From positions 585 through 64,584 of the forward strand of contig JAJDUM010000117.1 of the NCBI GenBank assembly GCA_022826645.1: a stretch of DNA of 64,000 bases. Reading direction: 5' to 3'. The DNA comes from Candidatus Poribacteria bacterium. Its GTDB lineage: Bacteria > Poribacteria > WGA-4E > PCPOR2b. The first letter of the stretch is position 1. Every line of letters starts with the position of its first letter. This document shows, in pieces, positions 6,133 to 14,805 of the stretch. Under the pieces are notes generated by a model that saw only the letters and a list, made by a program, of their open reading frames with translations, made no database searches and had not been told where the DNA came from. The position numbers and the translations under genes are program-made.

Positions 6133-6636
6133 CTACATTCCAAAGTTACCCCGTGCAGTATCCATAACTTCGGCAGTGATTTCGGTGTGTCCATTCTCAC
6201 GGGCGAACTCTTCGATGCCAGTCTTCGCCATTGAGCGGACGAAACTAGGTACGCGCTCCAAACGCGCTAAGGCTTCTGGTGTCCATACCGGTCCGGTCGC
6301 CTCCACCGGCTCCTGAAATGCTTCCGCTACAACCGATGTGAACGGGCATTTCCCGCCGCCTTCGGTGGATACCGTCGGTGCTTCGGCGGTCAGATTGTCC
6401 GGGTTCTGCTGATTCAGAAAGGAACGTACCATCTGCATCGGCTGTGCCGCTTCGCTCTTGCCACCGAGTTGAACATCAAGGGATTTTAGCATTTGGGTCT
6501 CCCACGGGTTCATGTGCATTGCGAACTCGGCAAAGCAATCTGGGCACTCGAAAATCGCCGTCAAGGAGCCTTGATCCGGCGTCGCTGTTTCCTTAAATTC
6601 CATCGCTGTGTTGCATTCAAGGCATAAGAATTTCAT
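6133..6636 (-). CDS. Zinc-ribbon plus PCP_red domain protein
   Basis: CLEC...CPDC, a GKCPF motif, and C-terminal WTPEALARLERVPSFVRSM. Confidence 0.8.
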   Translation of the reverse strand: MKFLCLECNTAMEFKETATPDQGSLTAIFECPDCFAEFAMHMNPWETQMLKSLDVQLGGKSEAAQPMQMVRSFLNQQNPDNLTAEAPTVSTEGGGKCPFTSVVAEAFQEPVEATGPVWTPEALARLERVPSFVRSMAKTGIEEFARENGHTEITAEVMDTARGNFGM

Positions 6637-7285: not shown

Positions 7286-8179
7286 TCATACTTCATGATT
7301 GAAGAACGCTTCAATTTTCTCCGCAAGTGCTATTAATGTCCTACCTGCGGGAGTATCTCGGTGTTGATCAACAAACACGCTACCTTCATCCGACGCAATA
7401 GAGATCCGAGGATCGAACGGTATTTTGCCGAGCAGAGAAACGTCAAATTGACGTGCCATCTCCTCCGTGTGTCCCGATGGAAACAGATCTTCGGTTTTGC
7501 CACAATCGGCGCACACATAGGCGGCCATATTTTCGACGACCCCGATCACCGGTGCGTTGAGTAGTTTTTTTGCCATCGTCAGCGATTTTTTGACGACAAG
7601 CTGGGACACTCCAGAAGGGATTGTAACAACAACTGTGCCGCCAAGATTAGGCAGGAGATCGACAAGATTTGGCAATCGGTCAGTACCGGGGGGAAGATCG
7701 ATTAACAAATAATCAAGAGATCCCCATTCAGTATCGGAGAGAAATTCACGGAGGGCACTCATTTCCATGGTCCCCCGCCAAGTGAAAGCATCCTTCTGCG
7801 TTTGGGCTTCCCAGAGGACCGGCGTTTCGTCGTCCTTGAGGAAGAGATCCATTGACATCACCTTGACCCCAAGTGGACTGAGGGCAGGTTTCACACCATC
7901 GTCACCATAATCAATTCGCTGCCCTCTCACCCCCATCATTTTAGCGATCGAGGGCCCATTGATGTCAGCGTCAATCACGCCAACACTGTGTCCGCGCAAC
8001 CCAAGTGCCGAAGCGAGGTTTGCCGTGACCGAACTCTTGCCGACGCCGCCTTTTCCACTCATGATGGCAACAATGTGGCGGACCGACGCCAATCGTTGTT
8101 GTAAGCGATTGACTTGCTGCGTTACTTGTCCAATGATGTTAGAACCGCCATCGGCGGGGAGGTCTTTGTAGGTTTTCAT
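7286..8179 (-). CDS. mrp: Mrp/NBP35 (ApbC) Fe-S cluster carrier ATPase
   Basis: SGKGGVGKS, DADINGPS, DLPPGTD, ENMAAYVCADCG; start moved to ATG 8179. Confidence 0.9.
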   Translation of the reverse strand: MKTYKDLPADGGSNIIGQVTQQVNRLQQRLASVRHIVAIMSGKGGVGKSSVTANLASALGLRGHSVGVIDADINGPSIAKMMGVRGQRIDYGDDGVKPALSPLGVKVMSMDLFLKDDETPVLWEAQTQKDAFTWRGTMEMSALREFLSDTEWGSLDYLLIDLPPGTDRLPNLVDLLPNLGGTVVVTIPSGVSQLVVKKSLTMAKKLLNAPVIGVVENMAAYVCADCGKTEDLFPSGHTEEMARQFDVSLLGKIPFDPRISIASDEGSVFVDQHRDTPAGRTLIALAEKIEAFFNHEV

Positions 8180-8260
8180 AAGAGGCAATATCTTAACCGT
8201 TATGCGTGAACTTGAGATGTCTGACTTCGGGAACAACCACAACGAGGCGACGAGCGAGGG

Positions 8261-8293
8261 CATGGCAGAAAAAAATCAGCGTTTTCTGCCATG
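8261..8293. terminator. Intergenic hairpin
   Basis: CATGGCAGAAAA...TTTTCTGCCATG inverted repeat between the MetE-like gene and mrp. Confidence 0.45.
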
Positions 8294-8322: not shown

Positions 8323-9492
8323 TTATGACGCTTCTGAACGCAATATCTCGGCGGCATGATGGATGACCTGTAATTTTTGCGCCGCGATTTTTGTTGTGTT
8401 TACGGGGCGGTCTGCGAATGTTCCAAAGCCACAATCGGGGTTTAGATAGATCTGCTCCGGTTTACGGTGATTTAATAGTGCACGAACCTTGTCTAATACG
8501 AAATCAACCGATTCGACTTCGGTGGTACGCGGGTCAGTGACGCCGAGTCCGATCTCTTTGTCGGGGGGAAGGTCGCCGAGGGCATCAATGCTTCCCGCCC
8601 GCTCTGTCGCGTATTCAAGCACAAACTGATCGACGTCCATCCGGCTAAAATATGGAATCAGAAAATCGTAAGAACCGCGAAGCAGGACATCCTCCTGTTG
8701 GCTCCAGTTGCCGCGGCAGACATGCAGGGCGGTTTTCATTTCACCGTCAATCCCTTCAACCACGCGATTCAGCAGTTCAACCGCGAAGTTGAGTTCTTCT
8801 TCAGGACTGCTCTTTTCTGAAAGTGCAGCACACATAAACGTGTGAGTTTCGTGGGGACCGGTAAAAGCGACTTCGGTCAACACCGGTTCATCGAACTGAA
8901 CAAATTGACACCCCGCGTCCCGTAGCGCATTTAATTCTTCGCGGAGGACCGCAACGACATCGTCCCCCAGAGCTTCTTTATCGGGATAAAAGTCGTAGGA
9001 GAGACGCTTCACCCACATCGACCGGGTCAGGAGATACGGTCCAGGCAAGGTGGCTTTGATCGGTTTGGTTGTGTGCGACTTGAGAAACAGGTAGTCATTC
9101 AACACGAGTGGGAATCTGCGCCCCAGTTGTCCATCGACGACCGGATTTTTCAGGGCGAACGCCGGGACATCCAAAGCGTTGAGCAATTGTTCAAATGCGG
9201 CTTTATCCTCGACATAGTCAAGCATTTCCGCAAGTGTCATCAACCGGATACCGTCAATACACTGGGTGATAAAAGAGTAGAAATTGTCCCGCCGTTGTTC
9301 GCCGTCGCTGACGATATCGACCCCGACGCTTTCCTGCAACTTGAGGGCTTCGAGCACCGCCTCATCCGCAACCGCGTTAAATTCAGCATCCGTGATTCCA
9401 CTTTTCTGTCTGTTACGCAATGCTCTCGAAACCGCCCGCGAGCGGGGTAAACTCCCGACGACAGTTACGGGAAATTGGGGTAGATTTTTCAT
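8323..9492 (-). CDS. Cobalamin-independent methionine synthase II family protein (single-barrel MetE-like)
   Basis: VGSLPR, SDGEQRR, QFDEP, Zn ligands LHVCRGN, LEY and PDCGF; 389 aa, lacking the N-terminal barrel. Confidence 0.88.
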   Translation of the reverse strand: MKNLPQFPVTVVGSLPRSRAVSRALRNRQKSGITDAEFNAVADEAVLEALKLQESVGVDIVSDGEQRRDNFYSFITQCIDGIRLMTLAEMLDYVEDKAAFEQLLNALDVPAFALKNPVVDGQLGRRFPLVLNDYLFLKSHTTKPIKATLPGPYLLTRSMWVKRLSYDFYPDKEALGDDVVAVLREELNALRDAGCQFVQFDEPVLTEVAFTGPHETHTFMCAALSEKSSPEEELNFAVELLNRVVEGIDGEMKTALHVCRGNWSQQEDVLLRGSYDFLIPYFSRMDVDQFVLEYATERAGSIDALGDLPPDKEIGLGVTDPRTTEVESVDFVLDKVRALLNHRKPEQIYLNPDCGFGTFADRPVNTTKIAAQKLQVIHHAAEILRSEAS

Positions 9493-9509
9493 GGCTCAAA
9501 CCTCCTGTA

Positions 9510-9722
9510 CTATTGTCGATGCCGGTCAATGATTTTCCCAAAAGTCCTCAAGGCTTCGTTGACCGATTTGGCATTGGGGAATATTTTGGCGACATCATCA
9601 TCAAGTTTAATGATATTTGTACCTTCGCGGTATCTCTGGGCATATTTGCCCCGAACCCCTTTACGGAAATCGTACTCATCAAGTAGTTCTGGATCGTGTC
9701 GATCAGCCATAGCTTTCTTCAT
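9510..9722 (-). CDS. BrnA-like antitoxin, orphan
   Basis: EYDFRKGVRGKYA...LDDDVAKIFPNAKSVNEALR is a typical small antitoxin pattern; no toxin gene adjacent. Confidence 0.6.
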   Translation of the reverse strand: MKKAMADRHDPELLDEYDFRKGVRGKYAQRYREGTNIIKLDDDVAKIFPNAKSVNEALRTFGKIIDRHRQ

Positions 9723-9738
9723 TTATAAAATGACGCCC

Positions 9739-10479
9739 TTAGATCACGCGCAGATCGACGTTGATGTCAACGGTACGGGTGAGTGTATTGGTCACGGGCG
9801 AGGCAGCGAGCGTTTCTTGCCAGAGGGTTTCTAACACCTCTTCGTCGGCGTCCGCCGCAACATAAATTGTCCCCTTAACCTCTTTGAAACCGCTGTGCCC
9901 GCCCTGCTCTGTGCCGAGAAAGACGAAGATATTGTCGACCTGTCCGCTCAACGAAATCTCCAGTTCATCAATCTCAACTTTCCGCTGAGATGCGCGAATC
10001 TGAAAGCCCATCGCCAAACACGCGCCGAGCGCACCGAGGACGTACTCGACCGCGCTTGGGGCCTCATCCCTCACATCGAAACTAGCGGGCTGACCTACCG
10101 ACCATGAATGATTCCGACAGAAAACCTTCGTCTGCATGCCACCATCCCAGTGAATGCGCGTTCCCCAACGGTAATTCCGCGCTTTTTCGTAGTCGGCATC
10201 CGTTCTCTGCTCGGCTTCGCCTCGCCGAACGAAATACTTATTGTGGTCGGTGGCAGGTCGCCACCCCATGTAAGGATTCTGGGTCATTCGACACCACGCG
10301 GGTAGGTCTTCCTTGACGCTGATTTCCGTGCTGCGAATCTCCAAAACCTCACCGTTTGGCACCCCCTCCATCGATTTGCGAATCAGCAGAAGTAGACCTG
10401 AGCCGCAGTCAAGGTTTCCACCTTTACATACATGGAGCGTCTGAAGATCATCTGACGCTTGTAAATCTTCATCTCGCAT
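9739..10479 (-). CDS. TusA-like plus OsmC-like fusion protein
   Basis: N-terminal GGNLDCGSGLL...GEVLEI...DLPAWC; C-terminal PSAVEYVLGALGACL...ASPVTNTL; start moved to ATG 10479 with GGGGA RBS. Confidence 0.8.
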   Translation of the reverse strand: MRDEDLQASDDLQTLHVCKGGNLDCGSGLLLLIRKSMEGVPNGEVLEIRSTEISVKEDLPAWCRMTQNPYMGWRPATDHNKYFVRRGEAEQRTDADYEKARNYRWGTRIHWDGGMQTKVFCRNHSWSVGQPASFDVRDEAPSAVEYVLGALGACLAMGFQIRASQRKVEIDELEISLSGQVDNIFVFLGTEQGGHSGFKEVKGTIYVAADADEEVLETLWQETLAASPVTNTLTRTVDINVDLRVI

Positions 10480-10603
10480 AACGATCCCCGATAAACGGGA
10501 GACATGAATCAGCCCGAATTTTGTATGATGAAATGACTCATGCGTCGATGCTGCCGAGGCGGATGCCTCTCCCACAGTCGGAGAGACTGCCTTATTCCCG
10601 GTA

Positions 10604-10963
10604 TTAATAGGTAATACAAGAACCGCCGGTCGTCAGAAATTCAACCGCCTTTGCCCCACCGACAATTGTGGCACTATCGACAAGGTTATTTTCATCAAGG
10701 TTGCGTTTTTTGAAGCAAGGGGAGCAGACCCAAATTGTTCCACCCACTTCGGCGAAATCCGCCATGAGTTGTTGAAGGGGTGCGAAGCCTTCTTCGTGAA
10801 TATCATCGGAGTAGCCGTTTTGCGACAGGTGCACACCCTCTGTGCTGAGGAAAACAACTGTTTCAACGCCGGATGCGACTGAGGCGTTGGCAACAACAAC
10901 ACCGACGGTCGCTTTGTCGGTGTTGTCCTTCGCGTGAGTGATACTAATCATCAGTTTAGCCAT
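10604..10963 (-). CDS. DsrE/DsrF-like family protein
   Basis: VVFLSTEGVHL, GGTIWVCSPCFKKR; 119 aa. Confidence 0.85.
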   Translation of the reverse strand: MAKLMISITHAKDNTDKATVGVVVANASVASGVETVVFLSTEGVHLSQNGYSDDIHEEGFAPLQQLMADFAEVGGTIWVCSPCFKKRNLDENNLVDSATIVGGAKAVEFLTTGGSCITY

Positions 10964-11226
10964 TATGGATTCTCTCCTTTTTTGATGTAAAAATAGGCTT
11001 TGTCTTCACCGCAGGAGTCTGCGAGAAGTTCGTTGCCTTTCATGTTGCACCATGCGGCGATATCCACAGGTGCCGCTGGGTCAAGCGCACGAATTTGTGC
11101 TATCTGTCCCGGTTCCAGGGATCGCATGGATTTCAGGAGCGCGATGATCAGGTCACCGCAACCGAGATCCCCTAAATCGACTTTCAAATCTGGAATGATG
11201 TTTGGTGAATCAATCGTTTCTTTCAT
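10963..11226 (-). CDS. TusA/SirA family sulfur carrier
   Basis: DLGDLGCGDL, LEPGQIAQIRALDPAAPVDIAAWC, YFYIKK; stop overlaps the dsrE start. Confidence 0.85.
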   Translation of the reverse strand: MKETIDSPNIIPDLKVDLGDLGCGDLIIALLKSMRSLEPGQIAQIRALDPAAPVDIAAWCNMKGNELLADSCGEDKAYFYIKKGENP

Positions 11227-11331
11227 AAAACGACCTTTTCGTCTGGTTACGCATTACATTGCACATGCTTGGCGCAATACTTCTGTTGCTTGAACTATTA
11301 CTCCGAACTTTAGGACAGACTGTTTTGTATC

Positions 11332-11520
11332 GCAAACTGTTAGTTTGTGCTTTGACATACTCCCAAGCATAAATGCTTGGGATTCTTACGATAGACTGAA
11401 CAGTAGCAGTTGCCCTGTGCTATCTTCCTGATTCACTGATTCGTGCCTTTCGTTAGGACAGGGTCTTACAGAATCTCCACAGGCGTTTATACTCTCCGTG
11501 TGTCCCGCGGCGAGTTGTTT
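11332..11520 (-). ncRNA. Predicted TnpB reRNA/omegaRNA (scaffold over the tnpB 3' end and right end, plus flanking guide); limits approximate
   Basis: Established architecture of TnpB elements; right-end hairpin visible at 11361-11382. Confidence 0.5.
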
Positions 11521-12788
11521 TAGGTTCATTGCGGCGTTAAGGTCTCTGTCTCGCGTGTGCCCACAATCACGGCAATGGTATGTTCTATCTGACAGGGACA
11601 AGTCCGAATCAATTACACCGCAGTTGCTACAGGTCTTGCTCGACGGGTAGAAGGTATCCGCTTCCACAATCTTGATACCAAGCCGGTCTGCCTTAGACTT
11701 CAAGAGCATTAGGAAGTTTGATAATGAAGCGTCCGATAGGGCTTTGGCGAGCCGGTGATTCTTGACCATGCCTGCGACGTTGAGCGATTCGATTCCGATA
11801 CGGCTTGCGTTGTTGACAATGGCTGTGGTTGCCTTCTGTTGTGCGTCTTGACGAATGCAAGCAATTCGGTAGTGCAACTTGGCAATTTTGGTTTTGATCT
11901 TATACCGGTTCCGGCTACCTTTGATGCGTTTGCTCAAACGCCGTTGCAATCGTTTTAACTTTCGCTCGTATCGTGCAAGTGCCTTCGGATTATCATAATA
12001 GACACCTTCGGAAGTAATTGCCATGTGCTTGATCCCTACATCAACGCCAACGACAGGCTTATGTCGATTGTCGGGTATGGGATCATCAACAGAAGTGTCT
12101 ACAAGGATGGATGCGAACCATCGGTGTCCGTGTTTAGATATGACGACTTTACAGATAGTACCGAGGTAGCGAAGGGGTTGAAACATACGGACCCAACCGA
12201 TTTTGGGAAGTTTAATCCGTTGACCTTCAACAGGAATGGTGCCTCTACCACTATCTGCCTGATAACTTTGACCATGAGAACGGTTCTTGAATTTTGGGAA
12301 ACGGTTTTGACCCGACCTCCACCGGGTAATTGCATCTTTGAAGTTGTTGTAGATTACGTTCTTTGAGGCATTCTGCGATAAGGCGTCGCACCATTGGTAA
12401 GTATCACGCTTGATAGAGTTGAACCGCCTCAGCAAATCGCAGTGACTACGCCAATCGTTATTGGCCAGCCCGTCTTTGAAATCCGCAAGTGCGTGATTGT
12501 ACGCAACACGGCTATACCCACAGTGTTGGGCAAATTGTGTGGATTGAACGTTGTTGGGATCTAAAGCAATTTTATGAGTTTTTAGCATTGGGAGGTCTTT
12601 CCATCTTTCGTTTCCCATTGTAGTGGGTGTGAGGGACACCGCCAAGCGACGGTGCTACAATTCCCTCACCGAAAGACAAACCAACTATACGATATTTTGA
12701 TATAGAAAATCAAGAAAAAAACTGCTAAAGCAGCACTCAAGCCCAAACCTAAAGGATTGGGCTTGAGTGCTAAAGCAAACCGCTTTGG
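11352..12788 (-). mobile_element. Non-autonomous IS200/IS605-family element (TnpB only)
   Basis: Right end GAAT-hairpin(CCCAAGCAT tt ATGCTTGGG)-agtatg-TCAA; left-end hairpin CAAG-CCCAATCCTTTAGGTTTGGG preceded by TGAC; no tnpA. The left boundary is inferred. Confidence 0.75.
11386..12588 (-). CDS. tnpB: RNA-guided endonuclease TnpB
   Basis: N-terminal HTH (KTHKIALDPN), RuvC I GVDVG, RuvC II IESL, Zn finger CSNC/CRDC, RuvC III DRDLNAA; start ATG 12588. Confidence 0.95.
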   Translation of the reverse strand: MLKTHKIALDPNNVQSTQFAQHCGYSRVAYNHALADFKDGLANNDWRSHCDLLRRFNSIKRDTYQWCDALSQNASKNVIYNNFKDAITRWRSGQNRFPKFKNRSHGQSYQADSGRGTIPVEGQRIKLPKIGWVRMFQPLRYLGTICKVVISKHGHRWFASILVDTSVDDPIPDNRHKPVVGVDVGIKHMAITSEGVYYDNPKALARYERKLKRLQRRLSKRIKGSRNRYKIKTKIAKLHYRIACIRQDAQQKATTAIVNNASRIGIESLNVAGMVKNHRLAKALSDASLSNFLMLLKSKADRLGIKIVEADTFYPSSKTCSNCGVIDSDLSLSDRTYHCRDCGHTRDRDLNAAMNLKQLAAGHTESINACGDSVRPCPNERHESVNQEDSTGQLLLFSLS

Positions 12789-12873: not shown

Positions 12874-14805
12874 TTACTCTTCCTCCGTTTTCGCCGTGTC
12901 ATTTTTCTTCTGATCCTGCTGGTAATAAGTACCAAGCACCTCATTGTCCAGACTCCGTCCCTCCTCAATCACCTGCGCTGCGAAATCGAGGTTGATTGTC
13001 GTGAGGTCGGCTTCCTGCGCTCGCTGTTCGACACGGGATTGCGTGATGTTACGCATAAATCCAGCGGGTACGAGGTCCAATCGTGCCCGTGCATCCGGTG
13101 TCCATTCAAGCGGACTCTCAAATGTTTCTTCTTGGGAGGTATCATCGGACTCGCGGGACTGCGCGACAGCTTTCAGTTCAGGCGCATCTTCACGGACAGC
13201 GGACGCCTGATCCATACTCTCGTTGATAATCTGCATCGCAAACTCGTTGGTGATTGTACCGATTTTCTGGACACGCGCCGATTTCTCGATTCGCGCTTTG
13301 ACGTTGCGCCGCATATATCCGCGCGGGACATTCCGCAACGCTTTTTTGGCTTGATCAGACCACTGGAGGCGCACACCGTCAAAGGTCTGTTCCTCACTGA
13401 CGCCGCCCTCCTGATCTGCGACCCTTTGGAGTGAATCTTTATCAACCATCTGGAATTTGTCACCGTCTACGCCGCAAACGGGGCATTTTATGGGCTGCTG
13501 GTCTTTGGCAGCATAGCCGCAATCCCCGCAGATGTAGGTCTTAATCGCACTGGAGTCCAAAACCGTTTGCGTTGCAATCTCCTTGGCAACCTTGGTCATC
13601 CGTTCCGCTGAACGTCCCGGCATAAAGGTCTCCATTGCCTGCTCAATAACGCTCTCGGTAATCACAGAGTGTCCACGTTCAATGGCAAAACGGTGGACAG
13701 CGGTGCGTGCAATGCCCTGCACCTGTGGAGGTGCTTTCGACATACGATCCAAGGCTTCCTGTGTCCAGACCACCGTCTCCTCGGCTGTGACATCAATTGT
13801 TGGAACGTATCGTTGGCTCGACAGGAACACATTACACGGGGCGAGTCGTAGCAGGTTTTCGGTGTTGCTGCCGATATCCATATCGGGGTCGCTGTGGACG
13901 CCGATTCTGCCTAACACTAGCATCCACGGTTCGGTTTTTCGGGCATATTGCAAGATCTTCTCAAACGCTTTGCCATCTAGCAAGGTGATTTTTAGATCGT
14001 AGTTGTGGTCTTCTTTGGCGATGGTTCGGGCAATCTCCAGATGAGATTGATAGATTTTGGCAAGTCCGGTGTCGATGACCTCTTCGTGCAGCTGTTCTTG
14101 CTCTTTAAACCGGAAGGTTTTGGATGCACGCTCAGTTAGGACACTGACAACGGAATTAAACACCACATAGTGAAGATAGGGGTCGTATACGCCGACCGCC
14201 TCGACTTGTCTATCAAATTCCTTACCAAGCCGGATGGCTGTTTTCAGTCCGGCGAAGGATTCGGGACTACCATCAATTCCCACGAGAATATGTCCCTTCT
14301 GTTCGTGCATCGCTTCTATATTTCGGACGACAAGGGTATCGGTCTCAATACGCCGCACAACCCGCTCAACAACACCGCCGAGTAGACTGTCCTTAACCGC
14401 CCCCATACCGAGGGCACCCATAATCACAAGATCGTAATCGCTTGCCTGAATGTCCTCCGCCAACTTGATGAAGTGTTTTCCCTCAGGCATTCTGGCTTCA
14501 AAGGGAATGTTGTTCTCAGCGCATTTGTTCTTCATGACCTCCAAGTACGAATCGGAGATTAATTGAAGTCCCATTGTAATCAATGTATCATGGATGCGCC
14601 GCTGCTTCTCAAGCTCAGCTTCATCTTGGTATTCTTCGGGGAGCGTATACTCCATCTGCTTGAACCGAACATCGTGCATTTTCGCAGCATAAACGTGAGA
14701 ACCGACGAGTTGCGATTGGAATTTTTTGGCGAACTCTACAGCAAAATTGACGCTTGCATCGGAATGGTCCGAGTTGTCAACAGGTACATAGATTTTCTTA
14801 AACAT
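12874..14805 (-). CDS. Tandem universal stress protein domains + three PCP_red domains + rubredoxin-like domain
   Basis: Two USP domains (KKIYVPVDNS...LVIMGALG; ILVGIDGS...GSNTENLLR), CGDCGY...CPVCG, and three W(T/S)xxAxxxL/MxxxP repeats. Confidence 0.85.
   Translation of the reverse strand: MFKKIYVPVDNSDHSDASVNFAVEFAKKFQSQLVGSHVYAAKMHDVRFKQMEYTLPEEYQDEAELEKQRRIHDTLITMGLQLISDSYLEVMKNKCAENNIPFEARMPEGKHFIKLAEDIQASDYDLVIMGALGMGAVKDSLLGGVVERVVRRIETDTLVVRNIEAMHEQKGHILVGIDGSPESFAGLKTAIRLGKEFDRQVEAVGVYDPYLHYVVFNSVVSVLTERASKTFRFKEQEQLHEEVIDTGLAKIYQSHLEIARTIAKEDHNYDLKITLLDGKAFEKILQYARKTEPWMLVLGRIGVHSDPDMDIGSNTENLLRLAPCNVFLSSQRYVPTIDVTAEETVVWTQEALDRMSKAPPQVQGIARTAVHRFAIERGHSVITESVIEQAMETFMPGRSAERMTKVAKEIATQTVLDSSAIKTYICGDCGYAAKDQQPIKCPVCGVDGDKFQMVDKDSLQRVADQEGGVSEEQTFDGVRLQWSDQAKKALRNVPRGYMRRNVKARIEKSARVQKIGTITNEFAMQIINESMDQASAVREDAPELKAVAQSRESDDTSQEETFESPLEWTPDARARLDLVPAGFMRNITQSRVEQRAQEADLTTINLDFAAQVIEEGRSLDNEVLGTYYQQDQKKNDTAKTEEE

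Follow-up and report, generated by a model that had tools for sequence, protein, structure and literature searches.

A conserved four-gene cassette links TusA-, DsrE- and OsmC-like proteins to a MetE-type zinc enzyme with a putative cysteine/selenocysteine residue on its lid

Background

Which reaction is carried out by a zinc enzyme of the methionine synthase type when its gene is accompanied by genes for sulfur carrier proteins? This question is raised by a locus of a Candidatus Poribacteria bacterium (assembly GCA_022826645.1, contig JAJDUM010000117.1), from which a stretch of 64,000 nucleotides (positions 585 to 64,584 of the forward strand), hereafter called the window, was analysed. Between positions 8323 and 11226 the minus strand of the window encodes a TusA-like carrier, a DsrE-like protein, a fusion of a TusA domain with an OsmC domain, and a single-barrel MetE-like enzyme. 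A first, sequence-only reading had pointed to these genes and proposed that they belong to a pathway that makes or cleaves a carbon-sulfur bond by means of protein-bound sulfur or methylthio groups. The four genes are indeed present there, and all the motifs that had been quoted for them (GCGD, DCGSG, CSPC, GACLAMG, ASPV and TFMCA) can be read from the translations.

The cassette joins two fields that have not been connected, namely sulfur trafficking by TusA and DsrE proteins and the zinc-dependent chemistry of methionine synthases. No description of TusA, DsrE and OsmC genes together with a MetE-like gene was found in the full-text literature searched, whose coverage leaves out most subscription journals and supplements. 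TusA, DsrE and OsmC do not occur as terms in the study of Price et al. 2021 (PMC7857596), and TusA and DsrE do not occur in the available portion of GapMind 2026 (PMC13759103).

We hereby undertook a comparative analysis of this cassette in genomes and metagenomes. The conservation of genes and residues described below argues for a real, widespread and undescribed operon, in which a MetE-type enzyme would carry a catalytic lid with a cysteine that is replaced by selenocysteine in some relatives (Cys/Sec).

Results

Gene order across phyla

The cassette was followed in two directions. A scan for the MetE-like protein, with one genome per species, gave 92 relatives, the best 80 of which were analysed as genome loci with 6-kb flanks. 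A scan of metagenomes for the fusion protein gave at least 600 stretches, at least 576 of which encode a relative, and the best 80 were analysed as metagenome loci. Starting from the fusion, the MetE-like gene is the next gene in 58 of the 58 metagenome loci with at least 700 nucleotides (nt) downstream, a DsrE gene is found in all 62 loci with at least 500 nt upstream, and a TusA gene in all 55 loci with at least 900 nt upstream; the gaps between cassette genes are mostly 2-33 nt. Because the neighbours are kept in every one of these loci, the arrangement of the four genes is far beyond chance, and its best explanation would be a single operon that encodes a single machine.

In the other direction, 44 of the 80 genome loci found with the MetE-like protein carry DsrE and the fusion on the same strand no more than 6 kb upstream of its gene; these loci are labelled Poribacteria, Brocadia, Gallionella, Nitrosomonadales, Nitrospinales, Desulfobulbaceae and an Anaerolineales metagenome-assembled genome (MAG). 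The order TusA-DsrE-fusion-MetE-like, with short gaps, is held outside Poribacteria at 52-78% identity (Brocadia, Gallionella, Nitrosomonadales, Nitrospinales, Anaerolineales and Desulfobulbaceae/Desulfocapsaceae). Many Poribacteria loci lack the adjacency inside 6 kb; in five genomes of this kind the fusion was found elsewhere in every case, from about 7.5 kb to megabases away, and four of the five have a weak TusA-like match about 1 kb or less from it. Among 31 genomes of Brocadiaceae, the three that encode the fusion are the same three that have any match to the Pfam family Meth_synt_2, and in these three the fusion and the Meth_synt_2 gene are direct neighbours. Longer proteins were also looked for, with only four matches at E <= 1e-30; the informative one (P0244) has a CG-type TusA domain fused straight to a MetE-like barrel, while another (P0245) looks like a read-through. 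Co-conservation, the point on which the sequence-only reading had said that its proposal could fail, is thus found in both search directions.

For the fusion itself, 1160 candidates yielded 879 relatives (counted as clusters at 90% identity) at E <= 0.001. The cassette occurs in at least six phyla and is carried by anammox bacteria, iron and nitrite oxidisers, relatives of sulfate reducers and sponge symbionts.

The MetE-like enzyme

The MetE-like enzyme has 389 amino acids (aa), is encoded at 8323-9492 on the minus strand and matches Meth_synt_2 with 128.7 bits against a cut-off of 21. Its match to Meth_synt_1 stays under the cut-off (20.9 bits over 37 residues, against 27), and therefore it lacks the N-terminal barrel. 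The match to TIGR01371 reaches 108 bits against a cut-off of 929.95, and all nine matching NCBIfam methionine-synthase models remain under their cut-offs, the best being PRK04326 with 198 bits against 406. The AlphaFold model has a confident barrel and a predicted local distance difference test score (pLDDT) of 87.2. The top Foldseek matches are MetE C-terminal barrels and MesD (3RPD, about 22% identity), with a TM-score, normalised to the query, of 0.77 against the MetE C-terminal barrel; the predicted structure shows a TIM barrel of the MetE C-terminal type.

The zinc ligands H257, C259 and E293 are present in 81 of the 81 sequences compared and C354 in 80 of them, and the homocysteine-binding positions S14, E65 and D201 are present in all 81, the roles of these residues being those given for MetE and MesD (PMC7857596). 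Both the retained zinc ligands and the missing N-terminal barrel had been noticed in the first reading of the sequence. Compared with MetE of T. maritima, residues 93-113 form an insertion, and residues 210-273 are left unaligned by HMMER. The unaligned part includes a lid loop (residues 211-229; 8806-8862, minus strand), which presumably holds about 15 residues more than MetE does.

A cysteine or selenocysteine on the lid

The lid reads HTFMCAAL in the window and contains the motif F-M-C-A, in which C221 is encoded by a TGT codon at 8830-8832. F219, M220, residue 221 and A222 are invariant, residue 221 being Cys in 75 and TGA in six of the 81 sequences; it is Cys in 58 of 58 metagenome loci. 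The in-frame TGA occurs in six of the 80 genome loci (L071, L072, L075, L076, L077 and L078), in frames that are otherwise open; L050, in which the reading ran beyond the end of the gene, was set aside. In all six loci a hairpin (CCCGC, a 6-nt loop with GU, GCGGG) is kept 16 nt after the TGA, and third-codon positions are constant inside its stem and variable in the loop and outside. A SelB match above the curated cut-off is present in four of the five TGA-form genomes tested. The relatives therefore have an aligned TGA, a hairpin and the selenocysteine machinery that mark a selenoprotein gene; the window's own gene has TGT instead.

Given the TGA codons, the conserved hairpin and the presence of SelB, residue 221 would be a catalytic Cys/Sec residue, encoded as selenocysteine in some relatives of the MetE-like protein. 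A Cys/Sec pair is the mark of a nucleophilic or redox-active residue. Since C221 is invariant and replaced by selenocysteine in six relatives, this extra cysteine, already singled out in the TFMCA motif by the first reading, is probably central to the function. Moreover the lid loop is probably mobile, as the model is least confident there: pLDDT averages about 55 across residues 211-230 and falls under 50 at residues 221-223. The terms "methionine synthase", "MetE" and "homocysteine" do not occur in the available portions of PMC13188914, of PMC1976440 and of a 2022 preprint on eight new selenoprotein families, and the MetE-like clade appears to be an unlisted selenoprotein family.

The carrier proteins

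The TusA-like carrier (87 aa; 10963-11226, minus strand) matches Pfam TusA with 35.9 bits against a cut-off of 28.6, and the NCBIfam TusA equivalog NF001423 with 36.8 bits against 78. It has the motif GDLGCGD instead of CPXP, which the available part of PMC5322559 names as the motif of the TusA/SirA family. Its cysteines C23 (11158-11160) and C60 (11047-11049) are present in 47 of 47 aligned sequences.

The DsrE-like protein (119 aa; 10604-10963, minus strand) matches Pfam DsrE with 51.9 bits against 22.7 and contains a CxxC in the motif VCSPCF, whose cysteines C80 (10724-10726) and C83 (10715-10717) are conserved in 45 of 45 sequences. It matches no NCBIfam family at E <= 0.01; at E <= 10 neither the YedF model nor the TusD/DsrE equivalog is reached, and the only matches are marginal ones to DsrE2 (13.5 bits against 210) and TusC (12 against 94). 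The closest solved chain, 3mc3, is an uncharacterised DsrE/DsrF-like protein.

The TusA-OsmC fusion (246 aa; 9739-10479, minus strand) matches Pfam OsmC with 54.9 bits against 27.5. Its open frame extends to a GTG at 10575, and ten homologues point instead to the ATG at 10479, which is most likely the start. Its TusA domain scores 22.7 bits, under the Pfam cut-off of 28.6, and has the motif LDCGSG; the two cysteines of this domain, C25 and C63 in the numbering of the 246-aa protein, are invariant. Among solved structures the nearest chain is 2opl, a "hypothetical protein". For none of the three carriers is an NCBIfam equivalog reached.

The OsmC domain of the fusion contains GACLAMG, with C154 at 10018-10020, and AASPV. 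The sequence-only reading had found that this domain keeps the first cysteine and has SPV where the resolving CP is expected. Both observations hold for the window, and SP in place of CP is conserved; the cysteine, however, is present in only 41 of the 48 fusions, is lost in every Sec-type cassette, and is replaced by Asp or Ser in all eight aligned stand-alone OsmC-like proteins of the second gene context described below. A role of the OsmC domain as a peroxidase or as a member of a thiol relay was considered and rejected, the cysteine not being conserved. The OsmC-like module nevertheless appears, from the loci compared, to be the most constant partner of the MetE-like clade, and would work without a cysteine. 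A complex prediction for the MetE-like protein and the fusion (score 0.01, mark 0.32) speaks neither for nor against binding.

The conserved thiols allow a redox interpretation, in which the enzyme would be a thiol-dependent reductase of an oxidised homocysteine or methionine derivative (such as free methionine sulfoxide, homocystine, a mixed disulfide or S-sulfohomocysteine). Zinc would polarise the substrate, Cys/Sec221 would attack it, and TusA together with the CxxC of DsrE would form a dithiol electron relay instead of carrying sulfur atoms. Cys/Sec pairs are typical of thiol oxidoreductases, the CxxC of DsrE is invariant, a gene of the AhpC/TSA type lies upstream in two of 34 long metagenome loci, and the accessory, stress-type distribution of the cassette fits such a role. 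We know of no zinc-dependent sulfoxide or disulfide reductase of the MetE fold; in addition, no conserved neighbouring reductase is there to recharge the relay, the OsmC cysteine is dispensable, and the better-known role of TusA domains is to carry sulfur. In favour of the redox interpretation, the available part of PMC13188914 lists as selenoprotein families both DsrE-like proteins with UxxC and OsmC-like proteins; on the whole we regard this interpretation as quite improbable.

Distribution and methionine synthesis

The presence of the cassette is sporadic. The fusion was found in one of 61 genomes of Gallionellaceae, the source genome itself, and in three of the 31 genomes of Brocadiaceae, and protein identity across phyla is 72-78%. 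Sporadic presence together with such identity fits an accessory unit that has spread horizontally.

Five further cassette genomes were inspected for other methionine synthases. Three of them have MetH or full-length MetE, that is, a full-length MetH-type frame in the Gallionella MAG and in the Nitrosomonadales MAG and a full-length MetE in the Nitrospinales MAG; the Desulfofustis MAG has two short S-methyl_trans frames, and in the Brocadia MAG (G001) no other methionine-synthase gene was found. Because it is sporadic and stands mostly beside MetH or MetE in the same genomes, the cassette would not be a general methionine synthase. A housekeeping methionine synthase was rejected on account of the sporadic distribution, and the alternative methionine route suggested by the sequence-only reading can be kept only as an accessory role, which the enzyme could have by analogy with the MesD/MesX system.

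Such a role would make the enzyme a member of a fifth family of folate-independent "core" methionine synthases, with methyl transfer retained, a methyl donor that is encoded elsewhere or is a small molecule, and carriers and lid Cys/Sec that bring in the methyl group or maintain the enzyme in a reduced, active state, as MesX serves MesD. The whole set of zinc and homocysteine residues is invariant, and methionine synthases are the top matches in both family and fold; MesD/MesX shows that an obligate accessory protein and coexistence with MetH or MetE are possible (PMC7857596). The Brocadia genome G001 without another recognisable methionine synthase points the same way, and so does an enzyme of Cys/Met metabolism dependent on pyridoxal phosphate (PLP), encoded directly downstream in two metagenome loci.

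Against a core synthase, the cassette encodes neither a corrinoid protein nor one that generates methyl groups, methyl groups are not among the known cargoes of TusA and DsrE, and S- or Se-methyl-cysteine is, in general chemistry, a very poor methyl donor. The 28 of 31 Brocadiaceae that lack the cassette also lack Meth_synt_2 and S-methyl_trans, so that it is not the general solution of that family. Finally, a scan for RNA families in 22 loci at gathering thresholds revealed one tRNA and one sRNA match only, and no riboswitch for S-adenosylmethionine (SAM) or cobalamin (B12). We consider a core synthase unlikely.

Two observations on methionine synthesis stand apart from the cassette. Five single-barrel Meth_synt_2 genes (345-395 aa) are found in the window's own genome along with two stand-alone S-methyl_trans genes, on contigs C102, C120, C90, C13 and C115, which is an unusually large set of zinc enzymes of the homocysteine type. 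In the 31 Brocadiaceae genomes (G001 and G076-G105), no Meth_synt_2 match is found in 28 and an S-methyl_trans match in none, and the making of methionine in most of these autotrophs is unexplained by these two Pfam models.

Selenium

The Sec forms of the enzyme raise the possibility that the cassette serves selenium itself, by trafficking or detoxification; selenium would travel on the carriers, a role that has been proposed for YedF, and a seleno-amino acid would be the substrate of the MetE-like enzyme. YedF, which combines a SirA/TusA-like domain with a DsrE-like domain bearing CGxC, is statistically linked to SelD according to the available part of PMC5322559. The window's own genome encodes a SelD with an in-frame TGA, and on another contig (G000:C13:1245-4920; L085 and L094) it encodes a different MetE-like paralog with a TGA at the zinc-ligand cysteine (H-L-TGA-R-G-N); SelD and a selenosugar synthase of the SenB type (TIGR04348, 401 bits with a cut-off of 300) lie next to it. 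These genes may form a selenium small-molecule cluster, one enzyme of which would be MetE-like and contain Sec.

Of the five other cassette genomes tested, two have a SelD above the cut-off; in the other three (the Gallionella, Nitrospinales and Nitrosomonadales MAGs, which may be incomplete) no such match was seen. The YedF model is unmatched by the cassette proteins at E <= 10, no gene of the Sec pathway occurs in the flanks of the loci examined, and residue 221 is Cys in the great majority of sequences (75 of 81 in genomes and 58 of 58 in metagenomes). A function specific for selenium is therefore, in our judgement, highly improbable.

A second gene context

A different set of neighbours accompanies members of this MetE-like clade, at 46-58% identity and with C221 kept, in Chthonomonadaceae, Fimbriimonadaceae, Chloroflexia, an Acidobacteria MAG and Paenibacillus puldeungensis (L063-L067, L069, L073, L074 and L080; for some of these the broader label is Armatimonadota). 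The partners in this second context are an OsmC-like protein, an acyl-CoA-dehydrogenase-like protein of the "Rv1679 family" and a binding-protein-like protein of the "Rv1680 family", though neither of the last two scores high enough for its equivalog model (411 where 600 is the cut-off, for example, and 240 where it is 400). A third family, "Rv1681 family radical SAM", has a TusA-like N-terminus, which is weakly matched by the TusA domains of the window. The Rv1679-type and Rv1680-type partners link the clade to a mycobacterial gene trio (Rv1679-Rv1681), and the window itself is without these genes. The published work found to name these mycobacterial genes appears to be diagnostic or proteomic and to give no function for them.

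The flavoprotein and the binding-protein-like protein recall the oxygen- and flavin-linked MesX system, which is a further point for a core methionine synthase. The two contexts together form a network of swapped partners around the MetE-like clade.

Organisation and neighbours in the window

On the minus strand the genes are transcribed in the order TusA, DsrE, TusA-OsmC fusion, a short open reading frame (ORF) and the MetE-like gene, and a TAATG forms the overlap of the TusA stop and the DsrE start. The four genes had been described as one run; all four are in it, but the short ORF (70 aa; 9510-9722, minus strand), which is lineage-specific and matches no Pfam or NCBIfam family, sits between the fusion and the MetE-like gene. 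It occupies this position only in L001-L003, with relatives at 55-59% elsewhere in L043, L047 and L048, and one contig from a sponge RNA library (X6 record 27) leaves out 9536-9711. Because of this restricted presence and of the contig that skips it, the ORF is placed outside the conserved cassette. The idea of an antitoxin was dropped, as no Pfam or NCBIfam family backs it.

RNA-library contigs from sponge metatranscriptomes of three studies cover the cassette at 90-99% identity; one contig of 2661 nt spans 9005-11351 and another spans 10070-11291. These contigs are compatible with transcription of the cassette, DNA carry-over being possible, and they cannot prove one transcript.

The closest loci, L001-L003 of Candidatus Poribacteria, encode MetE-like proteins that are 98-99% identical to that of the window and are collinear with it except for a TnpB of the IS200/IS605 type (11386-12645, minus strand; NCBIfam guided_TnpB 260 bits against 100), which is missing from them. 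This gene, of the RNA-guided nuclease type, lies in the flank, outside the cassette, inserted between a universal-stress-protein gene and the cassette, and RNA-library contigs stop near 11351-11391.

Directly downstream of the MetE-like gene, an iron-sulfur cluster carrier ATPase of the Mrp/ApbC type is encoded at 7286-8263 (minus strand); its best NCBIfam model is MrpORP, with 262 bits under a cut-off of 450, and it follows the MetE-like gene in L001 and L003 only. A protein of 643 aa (12874-14805, minus strand) combines two universal-stress domains, three repeats of PCP_red (the C-terminal domain of protochlorophyllide reductase) and a rubredoxin-like zinc ribbon, and a protein of 167 aa (6133-6636, minus strand) likewise has a PCP_red domain. 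The genes for these two proteins, of unusual architecture, border the cassette only in the closest relatives.

In the Brocadia, Gallionella, Nitrospinales, Nitrosomonadales and Desulfobulbaceae loci the flanks hold unrelated housekeeping genes or genes without a Pfam family. The only recurrent extra neighbour is a transglutaminase-like gene, found in 13 of the 34 long metagenome loci (L110, L111, L119, L128, L156, L158, L159, L161, L163, L164, L169, L173 and L174) and in L058 and L068; two loci have the Cys/Met PLP enzyme and two an SMR transporter. The transglutaminase-like protein, about 370 aa long, has a hydrophobic, signal-like segment at its N-terminus, and its gene is usually upstream of TusA, or, in L058, between the fusion and the MetE-like gene. 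The window's genome has no such protein apart from a 24-26% match on another contig.

Discussion

Our preferred, and still tentative, interpretation is an exchange of a sulfur atom or of an S-S bond at zinc-bound homocysteine, served by the carriers of the cassette; we would give it a probability of roughly 0.4. It is favoured because TusA and DsrE are sulfur carriers, because selenocysteine suits persulfide or selenosulfide chemistry, and because of the weakness of S-methyl-cysteine as a methyl donor. On the lid, Cys/Sec221 would swing from the sulfur of a homocysteine-type amino acid, bound to the zinc, to the cysteines of the TusA-type carriers and back, passing a sulfur atom (as a persulfide) or an S-S (Se-S) bond. 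Cysteine desulfurases, in which a cysteine on a mobile loop hands sulfur to TusA, offer an analogy for such a lid. The enzyme would load sulfane sulfur onto the homocysteine skeleton or remove it, instead of carrying out a methyl transfer of the folate type, and the OsmC-like domain would be a cysteine-independent module for docking or ligand binding.

The exchange could take the form of an interconversion between homocysteine and its persulfide or S-conjugate, or of the formation of homocysteine from an activated homoserine and a carrier persulfide. The latter can be made more explicit as a PLP-independent, persulfide-dependent system that forms homocysteine or homocysteine persulfide, in which zinc would activate, as the nucleophile, a carrier-loaded persulfide on Cys/Sec221, and the electrophile would be an activated homoserine bound at the Ser/Glu/Asp triad; so specific a scheme we consider distinctly improbable. 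Other routes to homocysteine that use sulfur carriers are described in the available part of PMC13759103, namely MetO/MetM and the persulfide-forming aspartate-semialdehyde sulfurtransferase.

Several points weigh against a sulfur exchange. An intact site for homocysteine and zinc is exactly what one would expect of a true methionine synthase, and all known members of the fold move alkyl groups, not sulfur atoms, to a zinc thiolate. The cassette encodes neither a sulfur source (desulfurase or rhodanese) nor an enzyme that activates homoserine, and the CxxC of DsrE suits a dithiol reductant no less than it suits a persulfide carrier. TusA and DsrE are absent from the second gene context, in which a supply of persulfide is hard to fit. 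Moreover, both the direction of the transfer and the nature of the transferred group are what we infer.

The original idea of a pathway acting on a carbon-sulfur bond by means of protein-bound sulfur or methylthio groups is, as far as sequence comparison can tell, partly supported, and represents a reasonable class of hypothesis. If the lid Cys/Sec trades sulfur with zinc-bound homocysteine, a new type of reaction would be added to the MetE fold, and a new entry or exit point would exist between protein-bound sulfane sulfur and amino-acid metabolism. If homocysteine is formed in this way, protein-bound sulfane sulfur would have a new route into an amino acid, through a new selenoprotein family. 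Should the enzyme instead belong to a fifth family of core methionine synthases, it would be relevant to where the folate-independent synthases obtain their methyl groups, which is an open question in the field.

Comparison with known systems

MetE (EC 2.1.1.14) is the closest reference for the fold. The C-terminal barrel of the T. maritima enzyme (1XPG/1XDJ) and the cassette enzyme have the motifs GS.P, DGE, DEP, H.C, E and DCG in common, and the zinc and homocysteine residues of MetE are all found; the cassette enzyme differs in having one barrel instead of two. The lid with Cys/Sec221 is missing from the MetE chains that were aligned.

The core methionine synthases MesA-MesD are families less than 30% identical to each other (PMC7857596). 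The MetE-like protein shares with them the single barrel and the residue set, whereas in sequence it belongs to none of them, staying under all NCBIfam cut-offs and about 22% identical to MesD. MesD/MesX (PDB 3RPD) is likewise a single MetE-type barrel without a folate domain, with the same zinc and homocysteine residues and an obligate neighbouring accessory gene, and just as the cassette it is sporadic and usually found alongside MetH or MetE, being the sole methionine synthase in only 22% of its hosts (PMC7857596). The partners are different, being TusA, DsrE and TusA-OsmC in the cassette, and neither DUF1852/MesX nor another core-synthase partner occurs among the annotated neighbours in the window and the loci. 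MesD/MesX needs oxygen (PMC7857596), while the cassette is also present in the strict anaerobes Brocadia and Desulfobulbaceae.

Among the carriers, the OsmC domain shares the Pfam OsmC fold with the OsmC/Ohr thiol peroxidases, and in the window protein the first cysteine, at the peroxidatic position, is present; the second is Ser, so that the pair of catalytic cysteines is not complete. YedF (TIGR03527) also combines a TusA-type domain with a DsrE-type CxxC domain; in the cassette these are separate genes with CG and CSPC motifs, outside the YedF family by the model search given above.

A system that resembles the carrier part of the cassette is the relay from TusA through TusBCD (DsrEFH) to TusE in E. 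coli and sulfur oxidisers, the family functions of which are summarised in the available portion of bioRxiv 2022.07.06.499078. There too, cysteine proteins of the TusA and DsrE families are encoded together, and the TusA-like and DsrE-like proteins of the cassette presumably exchange sulfur. The stand-alone TusA-like protein falls within PF01206 and lacks CPxP and an equivalog match; the DsrE-like protein has the PF02635 domain, again below the equivalog, and is a single CxxC protein instead of the DsrEFH/TusBCD trio. The cassette therefore departs from the relay in its CG(D/S) motif, in its one DsrE and in its end acceptor, which would be a MetE-like enzyme instead of MnmA or DsrC.

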